A stretch of DNA of 64,000 nucleotides from Candidatus Pyrohabitans jungbluthii (lineage in GTDB: Archaea > Hydrothermarchaeota > Hydrothermarchaeia > Hydrothermarchaeales > BMS3B), in NCBI GenBank assembly GCA_002010065.2, contig MTMD02000007.1, positions 13,113 to 77,112 on the forward strand. The letters are read 5' to 3'. The position numbers were made by a program, and so were the translations under genes. Below, one piece after another: positions 20,296 to 54,730 of this stretch. Each line of letters opens with the position of its first letter. Position 1 is the first letter of the stretch. The notes under the pieces are model-generated. The model was not told the origin of the DNA. It saw only the letters and a list, made by a program, of their open reading frames with translations, and searched no databases.

Positions 20296-21201
20296 TTATT
20301 TTTTCTTAACCTTTGCGGCAAGCTCTTCAATAAGCTCTTTCAAACCCTTCCCCGAGCTTATGTCGAAACCTTCGCCGTCCTTGAAGGTTGCATAGAGGTC
20401 TGTCCACGCGCCGCGCTTTCTCGCCTGGAAGGGTGGAGTTACCTCAACCTCACCTTTAACAGGGAAGTGGATTGTTACATAGCTTATCTTACCGTTAATG
20501 TCCTTGTTCAGGTAGATGCGCACATTTTGCGAGTCAACCCTTCCAAAGAAGTAGTCTATGCCCCGCTCAAAGCCAAGCTCAGAGAACACCTGGATTACTC
20601 GCGGCGGAAGGTCGCTGGTCTTGCACCCGCAAAGCGCTCCGCAGCTCTTTTCGAGAGCTTTAACTTTAGTCTCGAGCTCCTTGAAGACCTCCAGAGGCGC
20701 GCCCAAGATAACCTCGCTGTCCTTGTAGTCAGCGAACATTCTGGCGCCGCCGCACAGGAAGGTTACATTTGCCTTCCCGCTCTTAAGCGGCTCTGCAATA
20801 ACCTCACCGCACACGGCAATTTCGCCGGCGAACTTCGCTTCGATGCCGTGGAGAAGTGCCGCCGCCTCCATCACTTGGCGCGGGGTGGCTATCATCAGAA
20901 CCACATCCGGGTCTGGAATCTCCTCCACGGGCGCGATGAGCACCGCCTTGGTTTCAGCGGGCTGTATCCTCGGCTGGATGTCTATGAACATGGGCTCCTG
21001 AAAGCCCAGAGCGATCAGCGACTGGTGGCACTCCTCATCCTCGGCGCGCATGAGTATCGTCTCACCCAACGCGGCGCGCCTAACAAACTCGCAGAATTTT
21101 CCGGGCTTCGCCGGCGTGGGATAACCTTCTGGAATCTCCTTAAACAGCTTCACACCCACAAGGCGATACTTGCTACCGAAATAGGCGCGTATGCTCTCCA
21201 T
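20296..21201 (-). CDS. DUF169 family protein with C-terminal extension
   Basis: LVGVKL, FCEFVRRA, ECHQSLIALG, PDPDVV, AVCGE, FLCGGAR. An extra CGALCGC domain follows. Confidence 0.75.
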   Translation of the reverse strand: MESIRAYFGSKYRLVGVKLFKEIPEGYPTPAKPGKFCEFVRRAALGETILMRAEDEECHQSLIALGFQEPMFIDIQPRIQPAETKAVLIAPVEEIPDPDVVLMIATPRQVMEAAALLHGIEAKFAGEIAVCGEVIAEPLKSGKANVTFLCGGARMFADYKDSEVILGAPLEVFKELETKVKALEKSCGALCGCKTSDLPPRVIQVFSELGFERGIDYFFGRVDSQNVRIYLNKDINGKISYVTIHFPVKGEVEVTPPFQARKRGAWTDLYATFKDGEGFDISSGKGLKELIEELAAKVKKK

Positions 21202-21203
21202 GG

Positions 21204-21449
21204 CTAATCCTCGAAAGCGGGAATCTCTATATAAATTTCGTATGTTCTTTCTGCCACCTGCTTAACCTCTAGAACCTTGTATCCCTTGCCCTCCTGAGCC
21301 AGGCTGCGCGGTATACTCTCCACCGCCGGCGGATAGTCCACTATCACCTTGAGCTTCCCGCCGCCCGAGTAGCCTATCTCCTCAGCTTTAATCTTGGTGT
21401 ACACAAAGGTATCAGGGCACTTCTCGCCGCGAAGGTCTAAAGTCTCCAT
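21204..21449 (-). CDS. tusA: TusA/SirA-family sulfur carrier
   Basis: LDLRGEKCPDTFVYTK (CPx motif), LKVIVDYPPAVESIP. Confidence 0.88.
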   Translation of the reverse strand: METLDLRGEKCPDTFVYTKIKAEEIGYSGGGKLKVIVDYPPAVESIPRSLAQEGKGYKVLEVKQVAERTYEIYIEIPAFED

Positions 21450-22273
21450 CACTCATCACCCTCCGTCACACCGGAAGCTTCACTTCCGGGTAACACTGTG
21501 CATACATCTTCTACGGGTTTGGGAATAAAGTGCTCTCCACATGCGGTGCAGTCGTCTCGCTTCGCCACTCTAACCTTCTCAAAGCGCATCTCGTCCACAT
21601 TTATTATCAGCAGCTGATTCTTCAGTCCAATCTCCAGTCCAGCGAGGTAACGTATCGCCTCACTCGCCTGTATGGCACCGACGATGCCCACGACAGAGCC
21701 CAGAATACCTGCTTCTCTGCAGGTGGGTATCATGCCCGCGGGTGGCGGCTCGGGGAATACGCATCTAAAGCATGCGGTCTCGCCGGGGATTATGCTCATC
21801 GCCCTGCCCTCGTACATCAGCGCGGCGCCGTGAAAGAGAGGCACGCGGTTAACCACGGCGGCGTCGTTAACAGCGTAGCGCACAGCGAAGTTGTCTGTTC
21901 CGTCGACGATGGCGTCATAGCCCTTGAGCAGCTCAAAGGCATTGTCGTAGGTTACCTTCTCGTTTATCCCCTCTATCTTAATCTCCGGGTTTATCTCACT
22001 TAGCCGCTTTGCCGCCATCTCCGCCTTGGGTTTGCCAACATCCTCGGGGGTGTAGAGGAACTGCCTGTTCAGGTTGCTCATCTCTATGCGGTCAAAATCG
22101 AAGATGTGAATCTCGCCCACGCCAGCCAGAGTGAGGTAAGTCGAAACCGGGCAGCCCAGTCCACCTGCCCCGGTTACAGCTACTTTGGCCTTCTTAAGCC
22201 TAGACTGCTCCTTGGTACCGAAGTCCGGAAGGATGAGCTGCCTTGAATAGCGCTTTATCTCATTCAGATTCAT
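21449..22273 (-). CDS. ThiF/MoeB/UbaA E1-like adenylyltransferase
   Basis: RYSRQ, GAGGLG, SNLNRQ, DGTDNF, CFRC, TCREAGILG, CTAC. No rhodanese domain. Confidence 0.93.
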   Translation of the reverse strand: MNLNEIKRYSRQLILPDFGTKEQSRLKKAKVAVTGAGGLGCPVSTYLTLAGVGEIHIFDFDRIEMSNLNRQFLYTPEDVGKPKAEMAAKRLSEINPEIKIEGINEKVTYDNAFELLKGYDAIVDGTDNFAVRYAVNDAAVVNRVPLFHGAALMYEGRAMSIIPGETACFRCVFPEPPPAGMIPTCREAGILGSVVGIVGAIQASEAIRYLAGLEIGLKNQLLIINVDEMRFEKVRVAKRDDCTACGEHFIPKPVEDVCTVLPGSEASGVTEGDE

Positions 22274-22730
22274 GCTCTCGACTCTCCTTCAGGTAATCTT
22301 TAATCTCCCTGACGAACTGGTTGCCCAGCTCTTCAATGCGGAGCTCAAACTCCTCGCCCAGCGTGTCGCCCCTGCCTATGCCGGGGCACTCGTCGGCGCA
22401 GCGAAGCTTGAGTACCAGCTCGTCCGCGTAAATTATCCCATCGAACAGGAAGGGATACATCTGGCAAGAGAGGGGCTTCACCCCAAGCTCATGAAGCTCA
22501 CAGCTCAGATCCTCGCGCAGGAAGATGCATTTTCCAGCCTTGCCCTTGAGGCGGAAGAGCCCCTTCTCAGGCTTGAGCTCTGCGAACTCCTCCGGTGCTT
22601 TGCCTGTTGCACGGGAGATTCGCTCAACTCCTCGCGAGGTGACCACTCTGCCCTCAACGCAGCACTTGGCTCCGCACTCGCGGTAAACGCAGGAGAAGCG
22701 CTCCACTTTGTGCGGCGAGTATATTATCAC
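22260..22730 (-). CDS. YkgJ-family cysteine cluster protein
   Basis: C...CGAKCC, CIFL...C...KPLSCQMYPF, CPG. Confidence 0.85.
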   Translation of the reverse strand: MIIYSPHKVERFSCVYRECGAKCCVEGRVVTSRGVERISRATGKAPEEFAELKPEKGLFRLKGKAGKCIFLREDLSCELHELGVKPLSCQMYPFLFDGIIYADELVLKLRCADECPGIGRGDTLGEEFELRIEELGNQFVREIKDYLKESREHESE

Positions 22731-22733
22731 CGC

Positions 22734-23003
22734 TCAGCCTCCAGAGACCGCGGGTAAGATGCTTATAACGTCATCCTCGGCGACCTCTGTGTCTAAGCCT
22801 TTCTTGAAGCGCACATCCTCGTTGTTGTGGAAGATGTTTATAAACTGCTTTATCTCGCCGTTCTCAATTATGCGCTCCTTGAAGCCAGGCTTCGCTTTGT
22901 CTATGTTTTCTATAATCTCGCGTATCGTTTTGCCGCTCGCCTGTATTTCGGGCTTACCATCGCTGAACTTTCTAAGGGGGGTAGCAAGCCTAACTGTTAC
23001 CAT
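22734..23003 (-). CDS. Ubiquitin-like MoaD/ThiS/SAMP sulfur carrier
   Basis: Beta-grasp pattern (FINIFHNNEDVRF...LDT) ending ILPAVSGG with an exposed di-Gly C-terminus. Confidence 0.93.
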   Translation of the reverse strand: MVTVRLATPLRKFSDGKPEIQASGKTIREIIENIDKAKPGFKERIIENGEIKQFINIFHNNEDVRFKKGLDTEVAEDDVISILPAVSGG

Positions 23004-24244
23004 GCGACCACCTCCTTCTCGAGCTTCTTTTCTACTAACTCGCGAAATGCGTCGAGATCAGGCTTTATAACAGGCGGCTTTGTTAAGTAGTTCGCAAGAA
23101 CGTCCTGCGTCTTTAAGCCATTGCCTGTGATGTACGCAACAACACTCTCATCGCGGTCGATTTCTCCCGCCTCAACCAGCTTTTTAAGCGTGGCTATCAC
23201 AACACCGCCCGCGGTTTCTGTGAATATACCCTCTGTCTTTGCGAGAAGCTTTATCCCCTCGATGATCTCGGGATCGCTGGCAGCGCCGGCTGTGCCTCCG
23301 CTCTCCTTAATCACCTTTACTGCATAGTAGCCGTCCGCTGGATTGCCTATGGCAAGGCTCTTCTCTATCGTATTCGGCTTCACGGGCTTAATGGGCTCGC
23401 CGGTGCGGAACGCCGTGGTTACAGGCGAACATCCCTCGCTCTGGGCTGCGGTAATGCGCGTGTCTGCGCTGTCTATTAAGCCTAGAGTCTCAAACTCCTT
23501 CAAGCCTTTGTATATCTTTGTGAGCAGCGAACCACTGGCTACGGGGATAATCGCCCGCTCTGGAGCGCGCCACCCAAGCTGCTCCGCAACCTCGTATCCT
23601 AGGGTTTTTGAGCCCTCTGAGTAGAATGGCCTCAAGTTTATGTTCACAAAGCCCCAATTATAGTAGCCTGCGATCTCAGTGCACAGGCGATTGACATCGT
23701 CGTAGTTGCCCTCCACGCTTATAAGGTTGGGGTCGTAGGCAAGGGTCTGGATTATCTTCCCGAGGTTGAGGTTCGCTGGTATGAAGATATAGCAGTTCAG
23801 CTTCGCCTTAGCAGCGTGCGCTGCCACGCTGTTCGCCAGGTTACCTGTGGAGGCGCAGCCCACCGTATCGAAGCCAAACTCTATCGCCTTGCTCACCGCC
23901 ACGCTCACAACGCGGTCCTTGAATGAGAATGTGGGGTTAACTGAGTCGTTCTTTATGTAAAGCTCCTTTAAGCCGAGAGCTTCCGCTAAATTATCAGCGC
24001 GGTGAAGCGGTGTGAAGCCTGCCTGCAGGTCAACGATGCTCGAATCACTCTCCACAGGCAGGAGTTCGCGGTAGCGCCACAGCGTGGGTGCACGCTTCTC
24101 AATCTTCTCTTTGCTCAGCTTCTCCTTTATCGCCTCGTAGTCGTACTCTACCTCAAGCGGACCAAAGCACTCCTCGCAGATGCTTATCGCCTCTACGGGG
24201 TAGCGCTTTCCACAGTTCCTGCACTTTAGGCTAATGACCGTCAT
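22997..24244 (-). CDS. Threonine synthase-like PLP enzyme (sulfur-carrier-associated clade)
   Basis: Zn ribbon CRNC..CEEC, NPTFSFKDR (PLP Lys), CASTGNLANSVAAHAA, NLRPFYSEGSKT, TGNGLKT. Overlaps the SAMP gene. Confidence 0.9.
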   Translation of the reverse strand: MTVISLKCRNCGKRYPVEAISICEECFGPLEVEYDYEAIKEKLSKEKIEKRAPTLWRYRELLPVESDSSIVDLQAGFTPLHRADNLAEALGLKELYIKNDSVNPTFSFKDRVVSVAVSKAIEFGFDTVGCASTGNLANSVAAHAAKAKLNCYIFIPANLNLGKIIQTLAYDPNLISVEGNYDDVNRLCTEIAGYYNWGFVNINLRPFYSEGSKTLGYEVAEQLGWRAPERAIIPVASGSLLTKIYKGLKEFETLGLIDSADTRITAAQSEGCSPVTTAFRTGEPIKPVKPNTIEKSLAIGNPADGYYAVKVIKESGGTAGAASDPEIIEGIKLLAKTEGIFTETAGGVVIATLKKLVEAGEIDRDESVVAYITGNGLKTQDVLANYLTKPPVIKPDLDAFRELVEKKLEKEVVAW

Positions 24245-24286
24245 GGTATCACCTTCCAGAATACAGATATGTAACAATATATATAA

Positions 24287-24311
24287 TTTTCGGTAAAACT
24301 TATTACCAAAA
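24287..24311. promoter_or_regulatory. Inverted repeat beside the TATA box of the thrC-like operon
   Basis: tttcGGTAA-aactta-TTACCaaaa immediately upstream (minus strand) of AAAATTATATAT. The same TATA context occurs upstream of dsrA (~27405-27420). Confidence 0.45.
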
Positions 24312-24351
24312 GTAATATTAAAAAATAGAGAAAATAGAAAAGCTCCCAGCT

Positions 24352-24537
24352 TCAGCAGGAGCTATGCGAGATTGCACCCTCTGGACACGCCTCTACGCAG
24401 GCGCAGCACTCCACGCAGTCGTCGGCGTTCACCACTACGCTCTTGCCGTCGTTCAGCTCATAAACCGACGAGGGGCAGGTGTCAACACAGGTTCCACAGC
24501 CGACGCACTTTGCTTCGTCAACGCTTATGTCTACCAT
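24352..24537 (-). CDS. 2x[4Fe-4S] ferredoxin
   Basis: CVGCGTCVDTCP and CVECCACVEACP. Confidence 0.92.
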   Translation of the reverse strand: MVDISVDEAKCVGCGTCVDTCPSSVYELNDGKSVVVNADDCVECCACVEACPEGAISHSSC

Positions 24538-24709
24538 TCTCTTCAACCTCCGACTTTTCAGGGTTATCGCTGCTTATTTAAACTTTTTGGTGACCTCGCA
24601 GAGCACGAGGCACTTAAGCCCAGAGGTTTAACAAGTTAAAACTGAACATAACAAAATTTAAATATGTTAAGCTAAAGCTATGCTTGGAAAACTAAAAGGA
24701 GGCTAAGTA

Positions 24710-24916
24710 ATGGCGAACATAGAGGTTGATCTCGACGCGTGTGTGGGTTGTGGCACCTGCGAGTCTCTCTGCCCAAGCACCTTCCAGCTTCAGGACGGCA
24801 AGAGCTACGTGATTGGTGACGGCTCAGACTGCGACCTGGAAGAAGTAGTAAACAGCTGCCCGACCAGCGCAATAACTGTCGAGGGCATAGGTTCTGCTGA
24901 GAGAAAGCAGGTGTAA
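24710..24916 (+). CDS. Monocluster [4Fe-4S] ferredoxin
   Basis: CVGCGTCESLCP...SCPTSAI; AGGAGG RBS. Confidence 0.9.
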   Translation: MANIEVDLDACVGCGTCESLCPSTFQLQDGKSYVIGDGSDCDLEEVVNSCPTSAITVEGIGSAERKQV

Positions 24917-25036
24917 ATACCCCTCCACCTTTTTTAAATTTTAAAACTTACAAAATTTTATTCTGCTTTTATCAAAATTGGTTATTTAAAAAGTATCTAA
25001 ATTTTAAACACAAAAAAAGACAAAAGGGGGAGGGCT
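24917..25036. terminator. Probable bidirectional T-rich terminator region between convergent ferredoxin and dsrB
   Basis: T7 run after the ferredoxin stop on the + strand and A-runs (T on the minus strand) after the dsrB stop. Confidence 0.45.
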
Positions 25037-26149
25037 TTAGGAGAACTTCTTCATCTCCTTGCCCTTCACGCGAGCGCCGGCGTTCATGTCGCGGATGTTG
25101 AAGATGTAGTCGTCGATGTGCTTGTGGGTGAACTCCAAGCCAGTGCGTTCGAAGAACTCCGTCCAGCCGATGCGCTCTATCCACTCACCCATGCGCTCGT
25201 CCGGCTTGGCATCGCTGGCCCAGGCGTCGATTATCTTCTTAACTGTCTCCACAACCTCTGGCCAGCGTGGCGGGTTGTTGGGTATGAAAGGCACCGCGAG
25301 GCGCGAGAAGGCGGGACCTCCTCTGGTGTTGGAGATCTTGCCACCCACCCAGATTGAAACGCCGTCGTTCTTGGGGTCAGCCAGTGGTGTGCCTGGGCAG
25401 AGACCATAGCAGATACCGCAGTACATACACTTCTCGCCGTCTATGCTAATGCTCCTTATGGTGGTGCCGTCCTCCTTCTTTATCATCTTGGGCTTTATTG
25501 CATAGGTTGGGCACGCGGCGATCATGCTGGGAATCTCGCACGCCTTGCTAACCACTTCGTCAATAACCGTCGGTGGGCGGCGGTGAACGCCTAGGATAGC
25601 GATATCCGAGCAGTGCACTGCACCGCACATGTTAAGGCAGCCTGAGACAGCTATTGTGAGGCGCGTGGGAAGCTTCTCGCTCACGAAGTAGTCGTATAGC
25701 TCGTCCATGAGCACCTTCTGAAGACCTGGTGAGTCAGTTGCAGGTGTGTGGCAGTGCACCCAGCCGGTGCATGCTACGATACTGCGCACAGTCCTGCCGG
25801 TACCACCTACTGGGAATCCCAGCTCCGCAAGTTCCTTCTTCAGGGGCTCCACGTTATCTTTATTGTCCAGGATGAACTCAACGCTGTGCCTAGAGGTAAA
25901 GCGCAGGTAGCCGTTGGCATACTTGTCAGCAAGGTCGCACAGCTTGAGCACAGTCTCGCTAGCGATAAACTTGGGCTGCCCGGCGCGGACAGTGTAGGCT
26001 TCCTCACCGCTCTCGCTTACGTGCTTGTAAACCCCTGGCTCAAGCTCCTCGTGGTACTTCCACTTGCCGTAATTGCGCTGCACCACAGGGGGGAGCATCT
26101 CCTTATAATCTGGTGGACCAAAATCCAGCTCATCAAAGGAAAGCGCCAT
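25037..26149 (-). CDS. dsrB: Dissimilatory-type sulfite reductase beta subunit
   Basis: YGKWKYHE, LRFTSRH, CTGWVHCHTPATD, CLNMCGAVHCSD, CMYCGIC, NNPPRWPE, ERMGEWIERIGW. Confidence 0.96.
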   Translation of the reverse strand: MALSFDELDFGPPDYKEMLPPVVQRNYGKWKYHEELEPGVYKHVSESGEEAYTVRAGQPKFIASETVLKLCDLADKYANGYLRFTSRHSVEFILDNKDNVEPLKKELAELGFPVGGTGRTVRSIVACTGWVHCHTPATDSPGLQKVLMDELYDYFVSEKLPTRLTIAVSGCLNMCGAVHCSDIAILGVHRRPPTVIDEVVSKACEIPSMIAACPTYAIKPKMIKKEDGTTIRSISIDGEKCMYCGICYGLCPGTPLADPKNDGVSIWVGGKISNTRGGPAFSRLAVPFIPNNPPRWPEVVETVKKIIDAWASDAKPDERMGEWIERIGWTEFFERTGLEFTHKHIDDYIFNIRDMNAGARVKGKEMKKFS

Positions 26150-26162
26150 CTTCTTTCACCTC

Positions 26163-27332
26163 CTACTCCTCATCCACCTGTACTTCGCCCGGGAAGTAGA
26201 ACCAGAACGGGTTGTTCCTGGGCGCCTTCACCATCGTTGGCAGTGGGTCAAGTCCCACTTCGTGGAGGAACTTGCCAGCGCCTATGCGGTATATGGTTTC
26301 GCCGATTCTCTCCTTCGCTCTGCCGTTCTCATCCCACCAGTCGAGAAGCTTGTACATCAGCTCTTTAAGCTCAGTGTACGGAGGCTCCAGCTTCATGAAG
26401 GGTATCAGCGTCCACGCCAAGAAGGCACCGTAGCGACCTCTCGCACGTCCGCCAACGAGTATCGTGGCACCCCTGTCGTCTCCTGGGGAGAGTGCCTTGG
26501 GCATCTTCTGCAGGCAGTACATGCAGCGCACGCACTCGTCGTTGTTTATCTTGAGCTCATTACCATCCCAGCTCATCGCATTTGTGGGACAGTTTTTAAC
26601 TATGTACTCCACATCCACCTTGCCACTCTTGGCGTAGTTCCTTACTTCCTCCTGATCTATCTTGATGTCATCGCGCCAAGTACCCATTATAACGAAGTCT
26701 GCTCTGGGAACACCTGCAACGCAATCGGTGGGGCAGCCGGAGATCTTCACCTTGAACTTGTACGGGAAGCGCGGGCGGTGCATGTCGTTGAGGATCTCTT
26801 CGTCGGTCATCAGAGTGTGGTATATATCGTTGGTGTCTATGCACGCCATTTCACAGCGCGCGGGGCCGATACAGTTGCTCGCAGTACGGAAGTCGCCAGC
26901 GCTTCCTCCAATGTCCCAGTGCTCCTTCGCTGCCTCGTCGAAGAAGGGTTCAATGTTCTCAGTTGGTATGCCCACAACCTGCAGGTCTCCAGTGGCGCCG
27001 TGGAAGTTCATCAAACCAGAGCCGTACTTGTTCCACAGTTCAACAAGCTTGCGCAGCTTCTTTGTGCTGTAGAACCACCCGGCGGGCTGGATGAACCTTA
27101 TTGTGTGGGCATCTGCGAGGATGTCACGCCTGTCAGAGACCCTGCCAATAACACCAGCGTCGTAGCCGGGAACACCCACCATGCCGCCATGGGTCCAGTG
27201 GGTCATTTTGTCTTCGTAGTTCAGCTCATAGAGCTTGAGCAGCCCAGTGTAGCCCGTCTTTTTAATCTCTTTGACTATACTGGGCCATGGCCCCTTTTCA
27301 AGCTCGTCCAGAAGAGGGGTTTCCGATGCCAC
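26163..27332 (-). CDS. dsrA: Dissimilatory-type sulfite reductase alpha subunit
   Basis: TPLLDELEKGPWPS, THWTHGG, siroheme-[4Fe-4S] motifs CIGPARC...CPTDC, FPYKFK, CVRCMYC. Confidence 0.96.
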   Translation of the reverse strand: MASETPLLDELEKGPWPSIVKEIKKTGYTGLLKLYELNYEDKMTHWTHGGMVGVPGYDAGVIGRVSDRRDILADAHTIRFIQPAGWFYSTKKLRKLVELWNKYGSGLMNFHGATGDLQVVGIPTENIEPFFDEAAKEHWDIGGSAGDFRTASNCIGPARCEMACIDTNDIYHTLMTDEEILNDMHRPRFPYKFKVKISGCPTDCVAGVPRADFVIMGTWRDDIKIDQEEVRNYAKSGKVDVEYIVKNCPTNAMSWDGNELKINNDECVRCMYCLQKMPKALSPGDDRGATILVGGRARGRYGAFLAWTLIPFMKLEPPYTELKELMYKLLDWWDENGRAKERIGETIYRIGAGKFLHEVGLDPLPTMVKAPRNNPFWFYFPGEVQVDEE

Positions 27333-27506
27333 CTCATTTCACCTCCTGCCTTAGTTACAACAAAATCTACCTACGCCTAGCGAATTGAATTAAAGTTTTT
27401 TTGGTATATATAATTTTTCATTAAAGTGACCAGTCTGTGCAAAGTTGCCCACAACCGTGCACAATTTTACCTCGTTAGGCTACGCTGCGCCTATGGTTGT
27501 GGTTTT

Positions 27507-28049
27507 ATGGACAAGGAGGAATTTCTGGAGAGGTTCTACCTCGACGAGGAGGAGAGGCACAAGCGTGCGGAGCGCATAAGCAAGGGGATGGTGCGCTACG
27601 AGCGCAAGAAGAACGCCATTTTCACCTTTAAAGACAGCGTTGCCAAAATCGACCTCTGCGAGGTGTGCAGGCATCCCAAGGGCGTGACCTATACCCTGTG
27701 CGAGGTTGTGCCGAGCTTTGAAAATGTGGACGTTGGCGAGATGCTCGTCGAGGCGAGGGAGAAGGCAGAGGTGTTCTGCAAGAGCGAGGGCACCAGGGGG
27801 CAGTGCATAATCAACATAGTGATACCCCCGGAGCCTAAGATGATTATGGAGCTTGGTGAGCACCTCGACGAGATGACAAAGCTTGGAAACTTCGCTGTTA
27901 CCGTGTACGACACGAAGAGCGGGAAGATGGGAATGCTTGTGATAGATGAGAGCTTCCTTTCAGAGCTGCGCGAGGACCCCGATTACAAGGGGATGAGCGA
28001 CGCCGAGATATTCACGAATTTTATGATGAACTACGCTGAGCTACTATGA
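27507..28049 (+). CDS. Hypothetical protein (180 aa)
   Basis: Host-like codon usage, divergent from dsrA, ATGA overlap with the next gene. No family recognised. Confidence 0.7.
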   Translation: MDKEEFLERFYLDEEERHKRAERISKGMVRYERKKNAIFTFKDSVAKIDLCEVCRHPKGVTYTLCEVVPSFENVDVGEMLVEAREKAEVFCKSEGTRGQCIINIVIPPEPKMIMELGEHLDEMTKLGNFAVTVYDTKSGKMGMLVIDESFLSELREDPDYKGMSDAEIFTNFMMNYAELL

Positions 28050-29023
28050 CGCTGCTTTGCTTATCTCTGCACCACATAAAAACGAGCTATAAGAACTTCT
28101 CCCGGGTTAGGTTTTCCTCTCCCTCGAGCTTTTATGAGGCCACTCAGAGCTTTGGCGAGCGAGTGTTATTCCAGACTGGCACCAGGGTTGAGGTATACAC
28201 TACTGGCGATTCAACATCTGCGATGCTGAAGGTGCTATCACAACACAGTGGCATCGCAGAGGAGGAACTCTCAAAGCTGTTCATGGTTTACAGTGCCTCC
28301 GACGCAGCGGAGCATCTTTTCAGACTTGCGTGCTGCATTGAGTCTCGCGTGCTGGGCGAAACCTATATCCCCTGGCAGGTGGAGGCGGCGCTTGAGCAAG
28401 CTAAAGCGGCAGGTGCCGCTGGCGAGGTGCTTGAAAAGCTTTTCGGCGCATCGCTGCAGGCAAGCAGGAGGGCAATAGAGGAGACGGGCATAGCCAAAGG
28501 CGACCTCCACATCAGGGCACTGGAGGCGCTTCGTGCAGCGACAGAGCTTAAAGGAAAAAAGGTGCTCCTGTACGGCGCAGGTTTAACCGGCAGAAGGGTT
28601 GCAAAGCTGGCTAAGCAGCATGGCGCAAGCATCGCCGTACTAAACCGCAACTACGACATAGCGCAGCGATGTGCACATGAGATTGGCGCTGAGGCGCTTA
28701 ATTATGAGGAGCGCAATGACGCGCTGAGGGATGCCGACATCCTGGTATGCGCCACTCTCGCCTCGCACTACCGCGTTACCCCGGAGCTTCTCGCTAAGCT
28801 TGAGCGGGAGAAGCGCCTTGTGATTCTTGATGTCTCACCCTTCAGAAACGTCTCGCCAGAGGTGGCGAAGCTTGGCTTTGTCACCCTTGTTAACGGCGGG
28901 GTAGCGAAGGCTGCGGAGGAGAACCTCAAGGCGATGAGGGTAGAGGTTCCCAAAGTGGAGGGGATAGTGGCTGAGGAGCTGGCCAAGCTCAGGGCTGAGC
29001 TTCCTGAGCTTTTTGAGGTGTGA
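28046..29023 (+). CDS. Glutamyl-tRNA reductase (HemA)-like protein lacking the catalytic Cys and dimerisation domain
   Basis: QTGTRVEVY in place of QTCNRVEVY, HLFRLACCIESRVLGE, GAGLTG, NRNY, ENLKAMRVEVPKVEGIV. Only 325 aa. Confidence 0.8.
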   Translation: MTLLCLSLHHIKTSYKNFSRVRFSSPSSFYEATQSFGERVLFQTGTRVEVYTTGDSTSAMLKVLSQHSGIAEEELSKLFMVYSASDAAEHLFRLACCIESRVLGETYIPWQVEAALEQAKAAGAAGEVLEKLFGASLQASRRAIEETGIAKGDLHIRALEALRAATELKGKKVLLYGAGLTGRRVAKLAKQHGASIAVLNRNYDIAQRCAHEIGAEALNYEERNDALRDADILVCATLASHYRVTPELLAKLEREKRLVILDVSPFRNVSPEVAKLGFVTLVNGGVAKAAEENLKAMRVEVPKVEGIVAEELAKLRAELPELFEV

Positions 29024-47761: not shown

Positions 47762-48004
47762 TTATGAGTATAGAGGGGGACTACAGATATTTGACGGCTT
47801 TCCAGCTCCAGAATAGCAACCTACGGCGGAAAAATGCTTTTCCTCTTCTTCGCTGTAGACCATTTTCGTCTCTTCATCCTCGTCTTTCAGTATCTCTTCG
47901 AGCACAAAGTTCACAAATTCCTCCACTGAAGCAAATTCTTTGCTGTCTTCAACACGTTTCTTTATCTCTCCATATATCTTATCTTTTATCTCGATTTTCA
48001 CCAC
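47762..48004 (-). pseudogene. CopG/RHH-like small protein with disrupted C-terminus
   Basis: FASVEEFVNFVLEEIL...VYSEEEEK, then unrelated sequence where relatives typically end ...ERLRALGY. Confidence 0.55.
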
Positions 48005-48139
48005 TTTACCACCTCAAATTATTTATCCTTTTTCAACTTTACTTCTTAACTTCGCATTTTCATAGCCTCTATTTGAAGCCAGATATATAAAGAATGATTT
48101 AATCAAATACTATTAGCTGTGTTTGATCGGAATTAATGA

Positions 48140-49504
48140 CTATAAACTTATCTTGATTATGATGCTCTTTATCTCTTTCTTTATCTTCTTCATCAGCTCC
48201 CTGTCATAGTCATCTATTTCTAGTATTTCTTTAAATATAATTCTTATACCCTCCCTTCTTATATATTTATATCTAAGTAAGAATCCGATAAGGCCGTTTA
48301 TAATGAAAGCTAATGCGAATCCATATAAACCGCCGAGTAATATTAAAATGATACCTAAAAGAAGGAAAGTCATCGTACTTATGGCATATATTATGAAGAG
48401 ATACTTTTGTGCTCTTAGACCAAAAAACAATGGGCGCATAGTCAAATTAAGTGCGTAAACTAAAGAAATGAAAATCAATATCTGAAATATCCTTGCTGAT
48501 TCTGAATAAGAACTGCCAAAGAATATATTGAATGCAAAAGGAGAAAGTATTATGGAGAGTGTAATAATTGGTAGAGAAAACCATATTGAATATTTAATGC
48601 TTTTGTTAATTATCTTGTTTATTCTTTCAATATTTTTAATCTCTTTGGAGATAACAGGCATCAGTACATTCTCAAGAGGAGAAAATAAAAAAATTGTATA
48701 CCTAACTGCTTTTCTAGCAACGTTAAATATCGCAACTGCTTCAACACCAAGGAAAAACTGGATTAACCATGGTTGGATGTTATCGGTTAATTTTTTAAGT
48801 GGCCGTATCCCAATTGCCCATTTCCCATGAGATGTCACAGTTTTCAAGAAAAAGTTTTCTTTTGGTCTTGAAATTGAAAAATAACCTTTTATTATTCTGA
48901 GATAATTAGGAAAAATTAAAAGAAGAGAGGTAAATGATGAGAGAGGATACGCAAGCATTACACCATAGAGACCAAGTTCTAAGTGATAGCCAAATAATAT
49001 AACATAGATAAGTTTAAAGAAACTTTCTCCCACATTTAAAGAAAAAATAGACTTAAAATCAAGATGAGAATTGAAAGTAGTTAGGAATATATTCTTCCCA
49101 GCAGTTGTGATTATTAAAAATGCAGATATCTTGACTAGTTCGCTAACTATCTCTGAGTATCTCTGCTCGAAATATGTATTTGACAAAAATATGATCACGA
49201 ATAAGAAAAAACCAGAAAAAATCTCAACTTGAGAATAGTGGTAAAGAAGTGATTTTACCTTATCATAGCGCTTGGCTCCCCTTTCCCTTGATGCATCTGC
49301 TGTTATAACCCCTCCTATACCAGGGTCAAGTAAAGTGCCTGCAATGCTTATAGCGGAAGAAGCGAGGACTATCAGGCCATATTCAAATCTTCCAAGTATC
49401 CTGACAATTACTATGAAACTCAGAAGACCAAAAATTCCTGTAATTATATTTGCTAGGCTTATTAGTGCTGTTCCTTCTGCAATTTTACGAGCTAAGGATG
49501 TCAT
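48140..49504 (-). CDS. Oligosaccharide flippase (Wzx/MOP family)
   Basis: Multi-TM protein, VRILGRFEYG, FLGVEAVAIFNVA, FGSSYSESA. Confidence 0.85.
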   Translation of the reverse strand: MTSLARKIAEGTALISLANIITGIFGLLSFIVIVRILGRFEYGLIVLASSAISIAGTLLDPGIGGVITADASRERGAKRYDKVKSLLYHYSQVEIFSGFFLFVIIFLSNTYFEQRYSEIVSELVKISAFLIITTAGKNIFLTTFNSHLDFKSIFSLNVGESFFKLIYVILFGYHLELGLYGVMLAYPLSSFTSLLLIFPNYLRIIKGYFSISRPKENFFLKTVTSHGKWAIGIRPLKKLTDNIQPWLIQFFLGVEAVAIFNVARKAVRYTIFLFSPLENVLMPVISKEIKNIERINKIINKSIKYSIWFSLPIITLSIILSPFAFNIFFGSSYSESARIFQILIFISLVYALNLTMRPLFFGLRAQKYLFIIYAISTMTFLLLGIILILLGGLYGFALAFIINGLIGFLLRYKYIRREGIRIIFKEILEIDDYDRELMKKIKKEIKSIIIKISL

Positions 49505-49567
49505 GATTTTTGATTAGAAAGTATAGATATTAAAATCTATTCTTAGGTAGCCCCCTAGCTACTCTTT

Positions 49568-51145
49568 TTACTTTTTGTTTAATTTTTCCAATGTTTTTAA
49601 TTCTCTAATTTTTCGCCTGATTCTTTCTTTTTCAGTATATTCTTGATATTTTATTGGCATTTTAGCATATTTGCTATCCCCATTAAAAATATCCTTTAAT
49701 ACTCTTCCGTCCATGTCCTTTGGGATAGGTATGTCGAATAAATGTAAAACTGTTGGAGCAATATCTGTAATTTCAATTTCTCCTAATTTCTTTCCCTTTT
49801 TAATATCATGACCATAGGCGATAAAAATACCTTCTCTTGCTTTTTCGTGACGCCCTATGATTTTAGTTTCCTTTCTTTTATTAAATATGTTTTTGGATAA
49901 GGAAGTGGTAGTATTAAAATATTCTGAGGCTAAATATACAATATCTGGAATATGAGAAATATATCTTCCATCAAACACTTCTTCTCTTTTCCATACATTT
50001 TCTAAAACTCTTTTTCCATCTTTGTTAAGATGCTTTAGTTTACTAATTATCTCTTCTCTTATCTTTTCATAATCCTGATCTTGACGCAGATTCTTTTTAA
50101 TTATCTTTATTCCCAATGGATTAGCGCCGTAAGCTATTGCTATTGTATCGTTATGATTTACACCCCATGGAAAATATATATTTTCTTTTTTTTGAGTTAA
50201 ACTCTTTTCATACCAATTATCTAAAATTAATTTATTAACCAATTTATTTATATTATATTTTAGAGATTTAAAATGCTTCAATAAAATCCTTCCGACACGA
50301 TATTTTGCAAATGAATAGGCTTTATATGTTAACCACTGTCGAAGTCTATTTCCTTTTAATTTAAGGTATCCCTGATCCAATAACCATGAATTAACATTAA
50401 ACTCATATATTGCAGGTCCATGGAATCCATGATCAGATATTATGAAAATCTCCATATTTTGGAAGTTTTTAATGATGTCACTTAAAATTTTATCGACTTC
50501 TTTAAAAAAATCCAAAATAATATCTTTATAATTCCAATACCAATGTTGAATCGAATCTGTTTCTTCAATCCAGTATATTATGAAATCATATTTACGTTCC
50601 TTTGTAAGATTTTTGAATATCTTATATCTTCGCCACATTCTTTGAACATAAAGGGAAAATAACCTTTCATCAAAAATTTTTTCTTTCCATAATTTTTTAA
50701 GCTCTTCGTTCTCTAAATGAAACCCTTTAACTTTATTTTTTAAATCCGGTGGATATGTGTATTCACTATCTTCAGAAGGCGGCAATCCAGAAATCATAAT
50801 TCCATTTATTTTTTTAGGCGGATATGTCATTCGCAAGTTAATAATCATCGATTTATATCCATATTCACCTAGTATATCCCAAATAGCTGGCTCTTTTATA
50901 TCATTGTAACTTACCAGAGATCCATCAGGTTTTATAAAGTCGAAAAATCCAAGTTTAGCTGGATTTTTACCAGTAAAAAAAGATGGTATTGCAGGTGAGC
51001 TCAGACATGGAATAGTGCTTTTTAATATCCCCCAAGTTCCATCTTCTATTAACTTTTTAAATGTGGGTAAATATCCTCCATCTATCCAAGGTTTAATAAC
51101 TTTCCAAGTGGTACCATCTAAGCCTATTATTAGTACTTTACTCAT
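49568..51145 (-). CDS. Alkaline phosphatase superfamily (phosphodiesterase/sulfatase-like) protein
   Basis: IIGLDG, STIP...TGKNP, DSIQH, ISDHGF, DIAPTVL, MDGRVL. Confidence 0.88.
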   Translation of the reverse strand: MSKVLIIGLDGTTWKVIKPWIDGGYLPTFKKLIEDGTWGILKSTIPCLSSPAIPSFFTGKNPAKLGFFDFIKPDGSLVSYNDIKEPAIWDILGEYGYKSMIINLRMTYPPKKINGIMISGLPPSEDSEYTYPPDLKNKVKGFHLENEELKKLWKEKIFDERLFSLYVQRMWRRYKIFKNLTKERKYDFIIYWIEETDSIQHWYWNYKDIILDFFKEVDKILSDIIKNFQNMEIFIISDHGFHGPAIYEFNVNSWLLDQGYLKLKGNRLRQWLTYKAYSFAKYRVGRILLKHFKSLKYNINKLVNKLILDNWYEKSLTQKKENIYFPWGVNHNDTIAIAYGANPLGIKIIKKNLRQDQDYEKIREEIISKLKHLNKDGKRVLENVWKREEVFDGRYISHIPDIVYLASEYFNTTTSLSKNIFNKRKETKIIGRHEKAREGIFIAYGHDIKKGKKLGEIEITDIAPTVLHLFDIPIPKDMDGRVLKDIFNGDSKYAKMPIKYQEYTEKERIRRKIRELKTLEKLNKK

Positions 51146-51149
51146 AGGA

Positions 51150-52057
51150 TCACCGCTTAGCAAGTATCAAGTAAAACATATATCCTTTCCCCTTGAACAT
51201 TTTAGCAAGGAGGAAATTCAATAGAAAACAGACCATATCTTTCTTAGGGTCAATCTTCCCTAAGTGGTTATAAGTTCTTATTTCTAAAACACTTAAATCT
51301 AGAAGTTGAGATACAATCTTTTCTGGAATAAAACCTTTATTTTTATTAGGTGTTCCAGAGGCTGTTGGTGAATGAATATCTACCAAACTTTGAATTTCCC
51401 TTTGAGATAAAGGTTCTGCAATCACTCCTTCATTTATCAGTCTTCGATTGACCCTTTCGAATAATTCAGTTTCATCTATTCTTCGCTTTTTGTTTTTTAT
51501 AAATTTAGACTTAAAGTTTAGGTATAGTTGGCATATACGGTTTATCTTTGAAAGCAAACTTTTGTAAAACAATTTATTTGGTTCGTGCATAATGAATAAA
51601 ATTCCTTCATTAGAGAGTATCCGATTAATTTCATCCAGCAATTTACTATAATTTGGGATATGATGTAATGTAGAGTTAATAGTGATGATATTTATACTAT
51701 TTTTTTTTTAAATGGTAAGTTCACAGCATCACAAACTACAAATTCAAAACGATTTTTTGAATTATACGACTTCATCTTAGCTGTCTGTAACATTTGTTTG
51801 GATATGTCAGTGCAAATAATTAAACCTCCTTCTAAATAATTATTAACAATAGAAGGTACAAAACCTGTTCCAGTTCCTATATTTAAAACTATAAGATTCT
51901 TATATGTATTTGGCAAATATTTACTAAGAACATAATTCCAATTTTCTCTCTCCTTTTCTATTTCTGGATGTCTTTTATCATATAATTTCGCCTCTTCATC
52001 GTGAAAGATTCTATTTATCTCTTTCACTAACTTATCAGAAACTTCTATTCTTTTCAT
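51150..52057 (-). pseudogene. Class I SAM methyltransferase split by a frameshift in an A10 tract
   Basis: 5' part has LNIGTGTG...DISKQML...CDAVNLPF. After A10 (51700-51709) the -1 frame continues NSINIITINSTLHHIPNYSKLLDEINRIL into ORF 51150-51641. Confidence 0.8.
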
Positions 52058-52323
52058 TAAAAAACCTTCCCTTATATTGAATTATCCTATTATAATGTTT
52101 TTGTTATGACAATCCTTAACTCTTTTTCTATTTTTAACCATATTAATTTGCAACAAACAGGGCATCAAGATAATATATACGACTATTCTTCATTTTTTAT
52201 CTGAATCTCTCTTAACAAACGTCTCTTTTTTGCTTTCTCCACTGGTGTGAAGTCAGAGTAGGTTCGTGTCTCATCAAACCAAAACAACCTCGTATTTCTA
52301 CAACTACTAAAATCTTATTATTT

Positions 52324-53466
52324 TCATCCTGATAGAACCTTATCATAAACATCAATAATTTTTTTGCCTAAAATTTTCCAATCATACGTATCTACAACAT
52401 ATTTTCGAGCATTTTTCCCAAGCTTTTTTCTTAACTGTTCATCTTGGATTAGAGTTGAGATAGTATCAGCAAGAGATTTTATTCTATCTTTGGGCAGTGT
52501 TAATGGTGCGTTATAATCTGAATAATCACGATCAAATAATTTAACCAAAAGCCCCCTTTCATTGTCACCTAACAAGTCCTTATACGCCCTAAGAGAACTG
52601 GCGACAATTGCTTTCTCCATTGCCATCGCCTCCAAACAAGCAAGGCTGGTCGACTCTGCACTTGAAGGAAATACAACTATATCAGCAATATCATAGTAAT
52701 ATTTTGTTTTGTCATGTGGAATTTCACCAATAAATTTGACATACTTTTCTATATTAAGTTCCTTAACTCTTTCCCTCAGATAATGTTCCAATTTTTTTCT
52801 TCCAGCAATCCAAAACTCAATTTCATTACCAATCTCTTTGATTAAATAGGGTATGGCTTCTATAAGGTACTGTACACCATTTTTTGGATTTAATCTGCGC
52901 ATACTTAGAATTATTATCTTATATTTTTTGGAATTTTGAATTGAAGATGGTTTAAAATAATCTGTATCCACACCATTGGGTATCATATAAATTTTTTCCT
53001 TTTTTACAAATCTTTTTGCCACTTCTGCCATTTCACTACTCGTTGCGATAATGGCGTCAGCAAATTTAAATGATATTAAACGATAAGCTTTCATTCGAGG
53101 TGAATTGCCTACTGATGAGTCTAATGTACCTAAACCATGAAGAGTCACCACATTTGGTTTTCTCAGCATCTTTGCCAAAGGGCAAGTTAAGAAAGACAAA
53201 TAAAAAGTATAATGACAGTGGGCAATATCAATTTCTTTTATAAAATTTCGTAAATTTAGCATATCAGTTATCATATTTAGGGGAGTATTTTTTTTTGTAT
53301 GGTTTCTAATAACCTTAAACCCATCTACGTCCCATTCTCCTTCTGTATTTGTAAATATTTTAACGTTATGTCCCAAATCTCGAAGTGTCCTACTTAAACG
53401 ATAAACATGAATCTCTGCACCTCCAATTTGCGGCAAAAAAGTATCGGATATCATTCCAATTTTCAT
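52324..53466 (-). CDS. GT4 glycosyltransferase
   Basis: PQIGGAE, VTLHG, IPNGVD, ESTSLACLEAMA. Confidence 0.9.
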   Translation of the reverse strand: MKIGMISDTFLPQIGGAEIHVYRLSRTLRDLGHNVKIFTNTEGEWDVDGFKVIRNHTKKNTPLNMITDMLNLRNFIKEIDIAHCHYTFYLSFLTCPLAKMLRKPNVVTLHGLGTLDSSVGNSPRMKAYRLISFKFADAIIATSSEMAEVAKRFVKKEKIYMIPNGVDTDYFKPSSIQNSKKYKIIILSMRRLNPKNGVQYLIEAIPYLIKEIGNEIEFWIAGRKKLEHYLRERVKELNIEKYVKFIGEIPHDKTKYYYDIADIVVFPSSAESTSLACLEAMAMEKAIVASSLRAYKDLLGDNERGLLVKLFDRDYSDYNAPLTLPKDRIKSLADTISTLIQDEQLRKKLGKNARKYVVDTYDWKILGKKIIDVYDKVLSG

Positions 53467-54284
53467 TTTTTCACCTCTATTACATACGTTGTCCCATATC
53501 CAAAATAGTTTAACACTTTCCTATCTTTAAATCTATCTATAAACTTGAAAATTTCAATGGTTTTTGGGAAAATATAAGAAATATATGGCGAACATAACGA
53601 ACTTGCCTCAACGTGTAGTATCTTAAATCCATTATCTTCCAAAATTCTTCTAAATTTCCAAGGATAAAACCAAAGATGAGGGAACTCATTCTTTCCCGCA
53701 TATTTTTCTATCACTCCTTCTCTATTAATATTTTTTATCACCCTCAGAAAGCCAAAAAGAAATGCAAAAGGCGACTTCCTCGTAATGGTCCAAGGTGAAT
53801 CGCCACCCAAAATAGAAAAGCTACTTAAACCTAGACACGTAGGAACTGCGATTATTGCTTTATTTGCTACCCTTTTTATTTCTCTTAAGCTTTTTTCAAT
53901 ATTAGGTAAATGTTCTAAAACATGAGATGCAACAACTAGATCAAAACTTTTATCTTCAAATGGTAAATTCTCTCCATCCCCAATTATGAAATCTATTTTT
54001 AGATCTCTCTTTTTAATTATTTCCTTTGCTGCTATTATATTAGGGATAGAAATATCCATTCCAATTACATTGAATCCTCTCTCCCCAATTAAAACAGATA
54101 AAACACCCTCTCCACATCCATAATCAAGTATTAATTTTGGAGGTGGATTCATTTTTTCTATATATTTTAAAATAGTATTGTATTGTGCCCTATGGAGGTA
54201 TCTCCTTATTAAAAAAGGAGAATTAAATCTCTTTTCCCAAATTCTATCTGCATGCTTCGTGTATTCTTCTTTGGTATTGTTCAT
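53463..54284 (-). CDS. Class I SAM-dependent methyltransferase
   Basis: LDYGCGEG, GDGENLPFEDKSFD, HVLEH. Confidence 0.9.
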   Translation of the reverse strand: MNNTKEEYTKHADRIWEKRFNSPFLIRRYLHRAQYNTILKYIEKMNPPPKLILDYGCGEGVLSVLIGERGFNVIGMDISIPNIIAAKEIIKKRDLKIDFIIGDGENLPFEDKSFDLVVASHVLEHLPNIEKSLREIKRVANKAIIAVPTCLGLSSFSILGGDSPWTITRKSPFAFLFGFLRVIKNINREGVIEKYAGKNEFPHLWFYPWKFRRILEDNGFKILHVEASSLCSPYISYIFPKTIEIFKFIDRFKDRKVLNYFGYGTTYVIEVKK

Positions 54285-54730
54285 ATTTTATCACCGCAAT
54301 GTTTTTGCCTTTTTTTATTTGTTGTAAAAATTCAAATATCACCCAAAAAAGTTGCCAGAATTTATAATATAAATATAAAAATGTTTGATTCCCAGTAGCG
54401 TTTATAGGCCCTTTCATAAGAGAGAGTCTAGAAGTATGCCTATCTGAAAAAGACAGAAGTCCTGCAAGGAGAAATAAAGACACGAAAATCTTCTACACTT
54501 GCTTACAATGGAGAAGCTGAATAAGGAGATGAAGTAAAAAGCTAAATCTTCTCTTCAGGATAATTTGTTCTACTTATTGGTAATAGAACTTAATGGTCCT
54601 TTAACATAAATGCTGAGTTTATTTTTCTTTAATATAGTAGGAAAGTACTTTTAGTGGCACAATTAATGAAACACTTTCCATATAATCGCCCACTCACCAA
54701 TCAACCTGTAATGAAGCCGGTTCCTCATTT

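Follow-up and report, generated by a model that had tools for sequence, protein, structure and literature searches.

Gene content and organization of the dsrAB region

The stretch of DNA analysed here, hereafter termed the window, covers 64 kb (positions 13113-77112 of contig C7) of the genome of Candidatus Pyrohabitans jungbluthii (G000; 1.99 Mb, 15 contigs, 99.95% complete), a deep-subsurface archaeon of the phylum Hydrothermarchaeota. Between window positions 20296 and 27332 it harbors the genes for a dissimilatory sulfite reductase (dsrAB), two ferredoxin genes and a six-gene operon, which by homology most probably encodes a protein-thiocarboxylate-dependent route to homocysteine. A preliminary description of this region had listed these ten genes, and all of them were verified at their claimed positions by open reading frame (ORF) coordinates and profile searches. 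Family assignments rest on identities and family cut-offs.

The genes for the alpha (dsrA; 26163-27332; 389 amino acids (aa), GTG start) and beta (dsrB; 25037-26149; 370 aa) subunits are located on the - strand, and both translated products exceed the NCBIfam equivalog cut-offs (DsrA: TIGR02064; Bitscore: 478.5; cut-off: 392.85; DsrB: TIGR02066; Bitscore: 485.6; cut-off: 341.5). The best solved relative of DsrA is the DsrA protein of Archaeoglobus fulgidus (3mm5_A; Bitscore: 468). A core promoter resembling the transcription factor B recognition element (BRE) and TATA box, AAAAATTATATATA, is found at 27405-27418 (- strand) and is kept in the same-genus loci L013 and L015. Divergently from dsrA, on the + strand (27426-29023), are encoded a 207-aa protein, for which no family match was obtained in the searches, and a hemA-like glutamyl-tRNA reductase (GlutR_N; Bitscore: 90; Shikimate_DH; Bitscore: 70.7), which catalyzes the initial reaction leading to siroheme; a radical-SAM/SPASM gene comes next.

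Two ferredoxins are encoded between dsrB and the operon, as had been described, but only one of them is on the - strand. This gene (24352-24546) codes for a 2x[4Fe-4S] ferredoxin (Fer4; Bitscore: 53.2), while the other, on the + strand and convergent with dsrB (24710-24916), codes for a small ferredoxin of single-cluster type (Fer4_13; Bitscore: 42.9). The operon, entirely on the - strand, begins with a gene for a 415-aa ThrC-like pyridoxal phosphate (PLP) enzyme with an N-terminal zinc ribbon (22997-24244; PALP; Bitscore: 235; TIGR00260; Bitscore: 305.9), the longest frame of which spans 22997-24277, although the ATG at 24244 is the likely true start. It is followed by genes for an 89-aa ubiquitin-like carrier of the SAMP/MoaD/ThiS type with a terminal GG (22734-23003; ThiS family; Bitscore: 50.8), a 156-aa YkgJ/CxxCxxCC protein (22260-22730; PF03692; Bitscore: 30.8), a 274-aa E1 adenylyltransferase of the ThiF/MoeB/UbaA type without a rhodanese domain (21449-22273; ThiF; Bitscore: 280), an 82-aa TusA-type sulfurtransferase (21204-21452; PF01206; Bitscore: 57.1) and a two-part, cysteine-rich DUF169 protein of 301 aa (20296-21201; PF02596; Bitscore: 112). 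Neighboring genes of the operon overlap or are separated by 2-3 nucleotides (nt), and the carrier gene overlaps the stop codon of the ThrC-like gene. Positions 20296-27332 are also covered in full, with 73 differences, by one 52.9-kb contig of an independent study; the adjacency of dsrAB and the operon is therefore real rather than an assembly artefact.

Transcription units and promoters

The operon is preceded by a BRE/TATA-like core promoter, GAAAATTATATATA, at 24278-24291 (- strand), just upstream of which lies a palindrome, ATTACTTTTGGTAAT (24302-24316, - strand), while a hairpin followed by a T-run (24341-24363) lies after the stop codon of the - strand ferredoxin gene. The distinct promoter features, together with this hairpin and T-run after the operon-side ferredoxin, suggest four transcription units rather than one. 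The preliminary description had noted that the dsrA and ThrC-like promoters share a sequence. The word does exist: GAAAATTATATATA recurs with one mismatch at 27405-27418, with zero occurrences expected in shuffles, and the 13-mer AAAATTATATATA occurs five times in the 1.99-Mb genome. However, genomes with dsrAB elsewhere have near-identical A-rich/TATATATA boxes in front of the ThrC-like gene, and the motif was rejected as a sign of co-regulation, being the archaeal BRE/TATA core rather than a common regulatory site.

The palindrome, of the form TTACT-N3-(A/G)GTAA, recurs across the phylum ~26-29 nt from the operon TATA box, on its upstream side, in the ThrC-like promoters of loci L013, L023, L024, L026, L027, L041, L126, L129 and L130. 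Ten of 18 ThrC-like promoters of the phylum match it without mismatch and 16/18 with at most one, while the best match in 6/7 dsrA promoters has three mismatches. The composite of palindrome and TATA box occurs only once in the G000 genome. The palindrome is a candidate operator, perhaps for a methionine-responsive regulator.

Respiratory partners of DsrAB

As had been noted, dsrC, dsrK and dsrM are absent from the window; the genome's copies are, however, found on contigs C8 and C11, and DsrAB can thus not be considered to lack its usual partners. The DsrC protein encoded at C8:310943 (PF04358; Bitscore: 165.9), among housekeeping genes and adjoining hisB, ends in ...ACKIAGLPKPTGCV and has kept both redox cysteines. 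A DsrMK cluster is located at C11:54644-59071 (L039), where DsrK (NF045796; Bitscore: 552.9; cut-off: 400) is encoded beside a DsrM-like cytochrome b, the best hit on NF038037 although its score is below cut-off (Bitscore: 142.6; cut-off: 300). Three small DsrH/DsrE-like genes lie upstream of this pair, and a thioredoxin gene and a gene for a lipoprotein of 178 aa carrying five CxxCH haem motifs lie downstream, an arrangement which differs from the usual DsrJOP. No DsrD (PF08679) match was found in the genome, the control genomes likewise giving none. Genome-wide searches returned no match for sulfate adenylyltransferase (sat; TIGR00339) and, for the adenylylsulfate reductase AprA, a best match far below cut-off (TIGR02061; Bitscore: 50.5; cut-off: 641.75). 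The absence of both suggests that the DsrAB system would reduce sulfite, not sulfate.

Three published studies already treat Hydrothermarchaeota as Dsr-pathway archaea with dsrMK and name DsrABCMK as the minimal dissimilatory set (PMC10504309; PMC6775978; PMC10591310). With the minimal archaeal system as outlined there (Neukirchen et al. 2023, PMC10504309; Carr et al. 2019, PMC6775978), G000 shares equivalog-level DsrA and DsrB, a two-cysteine DsrC and DsrMK, while it differs in that its dsr genes are spread over three contigs, sat and aprA are lacking and dsrAB lies beside an amino acid biosynthesis operon. The dsrAB genes, flanked by the convergent ferredoxin and tetrapyrrole (hemA) genes, would thereby form a module encoding the catalytic core of a normal Dsr system, in which DsrAB is predicted to reduce sulfite with two partners encoded at other places in the genome, the two-cysteine DsrC and the membrane complex DsrMK.

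Two small Dsr-like genes of the sulfite reductase family are found in tandem at C15:85143-86862 of the same genome (L004), adjoining ilvE. Their products (275 and 299 aa) share 35% identity, and relatives, paired or single, are widespread among genomes of the phylum, whether or not these have dsrAB.

Distribution of dsrAB and the operon in the Hydrothermarchaeota

Among 38 Hydrothermarchaeota genomes compared, dsrA is present in 25, dsrK above cut-off in 24, DsrC-family genes in 27, DUF169 in 28 and a ThrC-like ortholog (at least 66% identity) in 31. While dsrK is found in 22/25 dsrA+ versus 2/13 dsrA- genomes, the ThrC-like ortholog is found in 21/25 dsrA+ and still in 10/13 dsrA- genomes; these counts show that dsrAB tracks its respiratory partner and that the operon does not track dsrAB. 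One genome (G021; 93% complete) contains the operon and neither dsrA nor a gene for a small sulfite reductase (SiR). Most of the loci compared, from most families, have their genes in the order ThrC-like-SAMP-YkgJ-E1-TusA-DUF169, with a few loci of the phylum lacking YkgJ or DUF169. One family splits the operon into ThrC-like-SAMP-YkgJ and E1-TusA-DUF169, which are 25 kb apart in G029 and are likewise separated in G031.

Only three genomes (G000, G007 and G008), which all belong to the window's genus, have dsrAB beside the operon, as does the one independent contig, while the contigs of G009, of the same genus, break at this region. Approximately 2.1-2.4 kb are found between the two ferredoxin genes in G007 (L124:8950-11110; contig C32), where the insert codes for one membrane protein and one secreted protein of 371 aa, and probably also in G009 (L015:4786-7203; contig C3). 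In 12 further dsrA+ genomes (G001, G003, G004, G005, G013, G014, G015, G018, G022, G023, G025 and G036) dsrAB lies apart from the operon: the operon's upstream flank is free of dsrAB or, in G013, the two are separated by 160 kb on a single contig. The + strand ferredoxin gene is found beside dsrAB in G007, G008 and G009, and relatives with 51-53% identity adjoin dsrA in G013 and G001, while in G007, G008, G004 and G005 the - strand ferredoxin gene immediately precedes the gene for the ThrC-like enzyme. The boundary between the two modules thus runs between the ferredoxins, that on the + strand, or a relative of it, going with dsrAB and that on the - strand, in the window's family, with the operon.

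The preliminary description had proposed that DsrAB is an assimilatory enzyme feeding the operon and had itself named a missing conserved linkage, alongside a respiratory gene set elsewhere, as what would refute this. Such is the outcome obtained, the linkage being restricted to one genus. We therefore consider it probable, though with room for doubt, that the genus has two functionally distinct modules side by side by chance, dsrAB encoding an ordinary dissimilatory sulfite reductase and the operon a homocysteine route of the type described for MetM and MetO of Streptomyces. DsrAB is probably not a dedicated biosynthetic enzyme.

A further genome of the genus, G010 (93% complete), is without dsrA and the ThrC-like, DUF169 and E1 genes, while DsrC, DsrK and four ThiS-family carriers are kept. 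The missing block is probably unassembled rather than absent.

The ThrC-like enzyme and its proposed role in homocysteine synthesis

Six fold-type-II PLP enzyme (PALP) genes are present in the G000 genome, coding for IlvA, TrpB, a TrpB-like protein, cysteate synthase, a ThrC on contig C14 and the ThrC-like enzyme of the window. The C14 protein attains 377.5 bits on the threonine synthase model TIGR00260 versus 305.9 for the window protein (cut-off: 167), and its gene adjoins one that is above the cut-off of the 'proposed homoserine kinase' model. Given this higher score and neighbor, the C14 copy is taken as the housekeeping ThrC, so that the second canonical thrC which the preliminary description had suggested seeking does exist. 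The window enzyme shares 44% amino acid identity with it, 69-91% with its orthologs in the phylum and 57-65% with the enzymes of 77 bacterial ThrC-carrier loci, these being the non-archaeal members of a set of 80 related loci. The bacterial relatives include Chloroflexota, Aquificaceae, Elusimicrobiota, Planctomycetia, Omnitrophota, Nitrospirae, Brocadia and many cyanobacteria. A carrier homolog is located downstream on the same strand in 74/80 loci (71/77 bacterial), its start lying within 700 nt in 71, and an S-adenosylmethionine (SAM) riboswitch is found directly upstream in six of the 27 bacterial loci scanned.

Other homocysteine or cysteine enzymes named as alternatives (metY, metB, cysK and DUF39) were not found genome-wide. 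For DUF39/HcyBio, no PF01837 match is present in the genome, controls being matched in three genomes; the best genome-wide match to the MetY/MetB/MetC family (PF01053, Cys_Met_Meta_PP) covers 108 of 381 positions (Bitscore: 34.7); and neither CysK nor CysM is among the six PALP enzymes of the genome. Cysteine would be provided by the tRNA-dependent route, as SepRS is encoded in the genome (Bitscore: 749.5). The second ThrC, the missing alternatives and the recurrent ThrC-carrier pairs together support the proposal, already made in the preliminary description with cysteine as the other possible product, that the operon encodes a protein-thiocarboxylate route to homocysteine through its ThrC-like enzyme.

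MetM of Streptomyces is listed as a MetO-thiocarboxylate-dependent homocysteine synthase in Table 2 of PMC13759103, where GapMind 2026 includes MetM, MetO, MoeZ and Mec with experimental evidence. According to PMC12172450, MetM turns O-phosphohomoserine into homocysteine, its homologs are distributed among cyanobacteria, a Microcystis 'ThrC' sharing 51.6% identity with MetM adjoins a metO-like gene, and metM of S. albulus has a SAM riboswitch. The S. albulus system of Hasebe et al. (2024), as described in these two sources, resembles the archaeal operon in its ThrC-family PLP enzyme, the GG-ended ThiS/MoaD-like carrier encoded directly after it, the E1-type activating enzyme, the retention of a housekeeping ThrC elsewhere and the SAM riboswitch, which as reported for metM precedes genes of close bacterial relatives (PMC13759103; PMC12172450). 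The archaeal system differs in its host, in an operon E1 without the rhodanese domain of MoeZ, in the addition of TusA, DUF169 and YkgJ as well as, in the window's family, a ferredoxin, in an operon without a Mec/JAMM gene, and in a promoter with a palindromic candidate operator and no riboswitch. The comparison supports the operon as a putative new archaeal variant of the homocysteine pathway published in 2024.

Carrier-bound sulfur is also used in other amino acid pathways. Cysteine is synthesized in Mycobacterium tuberculosis from carrier thiocarboxylate and O-phosphoserine by the CysO/CysM/MoeZ/Mec system, CysM being a member of the cysteine synthase family. This system has the carrier thiocarboxylate, a phosphorylated hydroxy-amino acid and a fold-type-II PLP enzyme in common with the predicted archaeal route, while the window enzyme belongs with ThrC instead and SepRS accounts for cysteine. 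Wolinella succinogenes, in the work of Krishnamoorthy and Begley in 2011, reportedly uses HcyS, HcyF, HcyD and MetY with the sulfite reductase Sir. There, too, homocysteine receives its sulfur from a protein thiocarboxylate, and a gene for a sulfite reductase lies nearby; however, Wolinella relies on a MetY-type O-acetylhomoserine sulfhydrylase, of a family (Cys_Met_Meta_PP) not found in G000, and on an assimilatory Sir in place of DsrAB. Price et al. (2018), who cite this Wolinella work, report Aquifex to be without every known homocysteine route (PMC5764234). Aquificaceae are among the close bacterial relatives of the window ThrC-like enzyme.

The cysteate synthase gene (Bitscore: 548) adjoins a fused sulfopyruvate decarboxylase gene at C8:177230-179607 (L009). 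This locus holds coenzyme-M-type biosynthesis genes and a second sulfite-consuming ThrC paralog in a non-methanogen.

Proposed carrier thiocarboxylation and sulfur delivery

The carrier attains 58.2 bits on the SAMP1 model, just below the cut-off of 60, and its C-terminal SGG is invariant in 21 sequences. In the E1 enzyme two CxxC pairs show no variation, and the conservation of Cys185 is 0.96, while scores on the MoeZ (Bitscore: 251.5; cut-off: 647) and UbaA (Bitscore: 255; cut-off: 450) models remain below cut-off. Since no other ThiF match in the genome exceeds the cut-off, against five ThiS-family carriers, the E1 must serve beyond the homocysteine pathway, and E1, TusA and DUF169 probably constitute a unit that forms thiocarboxylates generally, serving the other four ThiS/MoaD-like carriers as well. 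A rhodanese-less E1 serving several ubiquitin-like carriers is likewise found in the SAMP/UbaA system of Haloferax volcanii, from which the window system differs in that its E1 and carrier score below the UbaA and SAMP1 equivalog cut-offs and in that its E1 gene shares an operon with those for TusA and DUF169. Neither TusA nor DUF169 is known to have a role in the Haloferax system.

Conserved cysteines characterize the remaining products: Cys12-Pro13 of TusA is invariant in 22 sequences, seven cysteines of DUF169 in 18 and eight of YkgJ in 19. YkgJ is probably metal-binding. DUF169 and YkgJ occur in archaeal loci only (1/80 and 2/80 loci, respectively). No solved relative of YkgJ was found by search, and none of DUF169 by sequence. 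The AlphaFold2 model of DUF169 (mean predicted local distance difference test: 85.5) resembles folds of type III secretion system chaperones and YbjN over ~110 C-terminal residues only, with a template modelling score of about 0.5 by target length, while the N-terminal part matches no solved structure; the resemblance, confined to the C-terminal third, was not adopted as a functional clue. A search of the ESM Atlas with DUF169 retrieved other DUF169 clusters only (scores: 0.77), and the predicted complex of DUF169 with TusA, both entered as alignments, scores 0.11 against a mark of 0.32. In the literature consulted, DUF169/COG2043 is mentioned in passing only, as an occasional SepRS neighbor and in a list of genes co-occurring with YedE.

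We infer every chemical step of the proposed route from homology. In this second module, comprising the - strand ferredoxin and the six-gene operon, E1 would adenylate the C-terminal glycine of the GG carrier, and sulfur would reach the carrier as a persulfide on Cys12 of TusA, which several cysteine desulfurase-family (Aminotran_5) genes of the genome could load. DUF169, YkgJ and the ferredoxin probably aid sulfur delivery and the reductive release that would yield the carrier thiocarboxylate, and together with E1 and TusA may be regarded as the thiocarboxylate-forming unit. The ThrC-like enzyme would then condense the thiocarboxylate with O-phosphohomoserine, made for the canonical ThrC through the adjoining homoserine kinase-like gene, and homocysteine would be released, possibly through cleavage by a JAMM protein encoded elsewhere, of which a candidate (Prok-JAB; Bitscore: 75.3) is found at C8:100872.

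Sulfite reductase genes beside related operons and alternative interpretations

Several observations weigh against a MetM/MetO-type route abutting dsrAB by chance. Relatedness to MetM itself (A0A059WBP2) is indirect, traced through cyanobacterial ThrC-carrier pairs (57-60% identity) and through gene context. An Rfam scan of the window gave neither a SAM riboswitch nor any other element, no JAMM/Mec gene lies inside the operon, and methionine synthases of the MetE (PF01717) and MetH (PF02574) types were not found in the genome, in a search for which the Methanosarcina control was silent and which other types would escape. Sulfite reductase-family genes and their partners, furthermore, recur beside related operons at a frequency above our expectation. 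In the sister genus a full-length dsrC is found two genes upstream of the ferredoxin-ThrC-like pair, in the order rpiA-dsrC-aIF5A-agmatinase-ferredoxin-ThrC-like (L122:3852-6586 on contig C5 of G004; L121:780-2776 on contig C151 of G005), which speaks against chance adjacency. In a family without dsrAB, two small NIR_SIR genes and genes for an FrhB-like protein, a one-cysteine DsrC/TusE-like protein and a PP-loop ATPase precede the operon, which here has the order ThrC-like-SAMP-Thi4-YkgJ-E1-TusA-DUF169 (L041:2431-11173, with the same arrangement on G019:C54 and G020:C61). Among bacteria, genes for a small SiR and TusA precede ThrC-like-carrier-E1 in L051, L056, L063 and L107, the cluster of L107 having a SAM riboswitch upstream and L056 also holding genes for ATP sulfurylase and a ThiS-PALP fusion. 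In one metagenome-assembled genome each of Elusimicrobiota (L045:3267-5717; 817 aa) and Omnitrophota (L054:2288-4678; 797 aa), the genes for the ThrC-like enzyme, carrier and E1 are immediately preceded by one for a single protein in which a siroheme sulfite/nitrite reductase module is fused to a C-terminal TusA domain. In total, a SiR-like ORF is found in 7/80 loci, six bacterial and the archaeal L041.

These neighbors bear on the proposal of the preliminary description, in which DsrAB would be mainly biosynthetic, a ferredoxin-driven enzyme passing sulfite sulfur through TusA to the E1-activated carrier for homocysteine synthesis by the ThrC-like enzyme. Its general scheme, in which sulfur passes from sulfite reductase to TusA and on to the carrier, has support in the comparative data, through the small non-DsrAB reductases that are linked or fused to TusA in other organisms; its assignment of DsrAB as the assimilatory donor does not fare as well. 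In its favor are the position of dsrAB beside the operon in three genomes of the genus and on an independent contig, the two ferredoxins between the modules, the sister-genus dsrC two genes from the operon and the lack of sat and aprA, which leaves no sulfate respiration. Set against these are a canonical DsrC and DsrMK in the genome, a dsrA that tracks dsrK rather than the operon, operons in ten of the 13 dsrA- genomes (one of which, G021, is without small SiR as well) and the 12 dsrA+ genomes with dsrAB apart from the operon. Within the locus itself, the separate transcription units with a convergent gene between them, the unrelated insert genes of G007 and promoters that share the TATA core only point the same way, and the Aminotran_5 enzymes could load TusA instead. 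An assimilatory DsrAB is thus quite unlikely. The recurrent SiR and Dsr neighbors do not rescue it, yet they keep a weaker form of the DsrAB-feed idea alive. The neighborhood would then reflect more than chance: sulfite may be the physiological sulfur source of the carrier route in the Hydrothermarchaeota and several bacterial phyla, siroheme reductases passing a persulfide to TusA without free sulfide, and the DsrAB of this genus, through DsrC and the DsrE/H-like proteins, might serve respiration and biosynthesis alike. The reductases concerned would be the small SiRs, the SiR-TusA fusions, the Fsr-like pair with its TusE-like protein and, in the window's genus, DsrAB. We regard this sulfite-fed arrangement as unlikely, although worth considering.

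The operon could alternatively be a general SAMP/UbaA unit for molybdenum cofactor synthesis, tRNA thiolation and sampylation, with the ThrC-like enzyme a second true threonine synthase riding along. The single E1 for five carriers, a ThrC-like score well above the thrC cut-off (306 versus 167 bits), the near-threshold SAMP1 score of the carrier and the separation of E1-TusA-DUF169 from ThrC-like-SAMP in G029 and G031 are all consistent with this. However, the translational overlap of the ThrC-like and carrier genes and their pairing in 74/80 loci across many bacterial phyla tie the two together, the riboswitches before 6/27 bacterial versions respond to a methionine rather than a threonine signal, a better ThrC with a homoserine kinase-like neighbor is already encoded and no other homocysteine route was found in the genome, making a general unit with a passenger threonine synthase unlikely. 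A third function for the ThrC-like enzyme and carrier would be cysteine synthesis from O-phosphoserine in the manner of CysM/CysO. The genome has no CysK or CysM, O-phosphoserine is available, being used by SepRS and cysteate synthase, and the latter, another ThrC paralog, acts on it; but SepRS already supplies tRNA-dependent cysteine, the window enzyme belongs to the ThrC rather than the CysM family, and it is homocysteine, not cysteine, for which the pathway is otherwise missing. The characterized relative MetM, moreover, uses O-phosphohomoserine in the accounts given by PMC13759103 and PMC12172450. A role in cysteine synthesis is accordingly very unlikely, and a homocysteine operon lying beside a respiratory dsrAB is the interpretation we favor.

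Additional genes in the window

The region at 48000-62600 of the window is of low guanine-plus-cytosine content (29-43%, compared with about 54%) and harbors a surface-glycan locus with genes for a flippase, a Wzy-like polymerase, seven glycosyltransferases, a methyltransferase and a phosphodiesterase/sulfatase-like protein. This locus was probably acquired horizontally.

Implications for sulfur metabolism in the Hydrothermarchaeota

As dsrAB is in this lineage still accompanied by DsrC and DsrMK, the present results offer no ground for dropping it as a dissimilatory marker, although without sat and aprA it marks sulfite reduction rather than sulfate reduction. The SiR-TusA fusions beside bacterial operons raise the testable idea that assimilatory sulfite reduction may feed a persulfide relay rather than sulfide. 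TusA, DUF169 and YkgJ are candidates for the sulfur donor in archaeal carrier-protein thiocarboxylation, and the operon in which they are encoded would, with the MetM/MetO chemistry described in 2024, fill the missing homocysteine step for a whole archaeal phylum.

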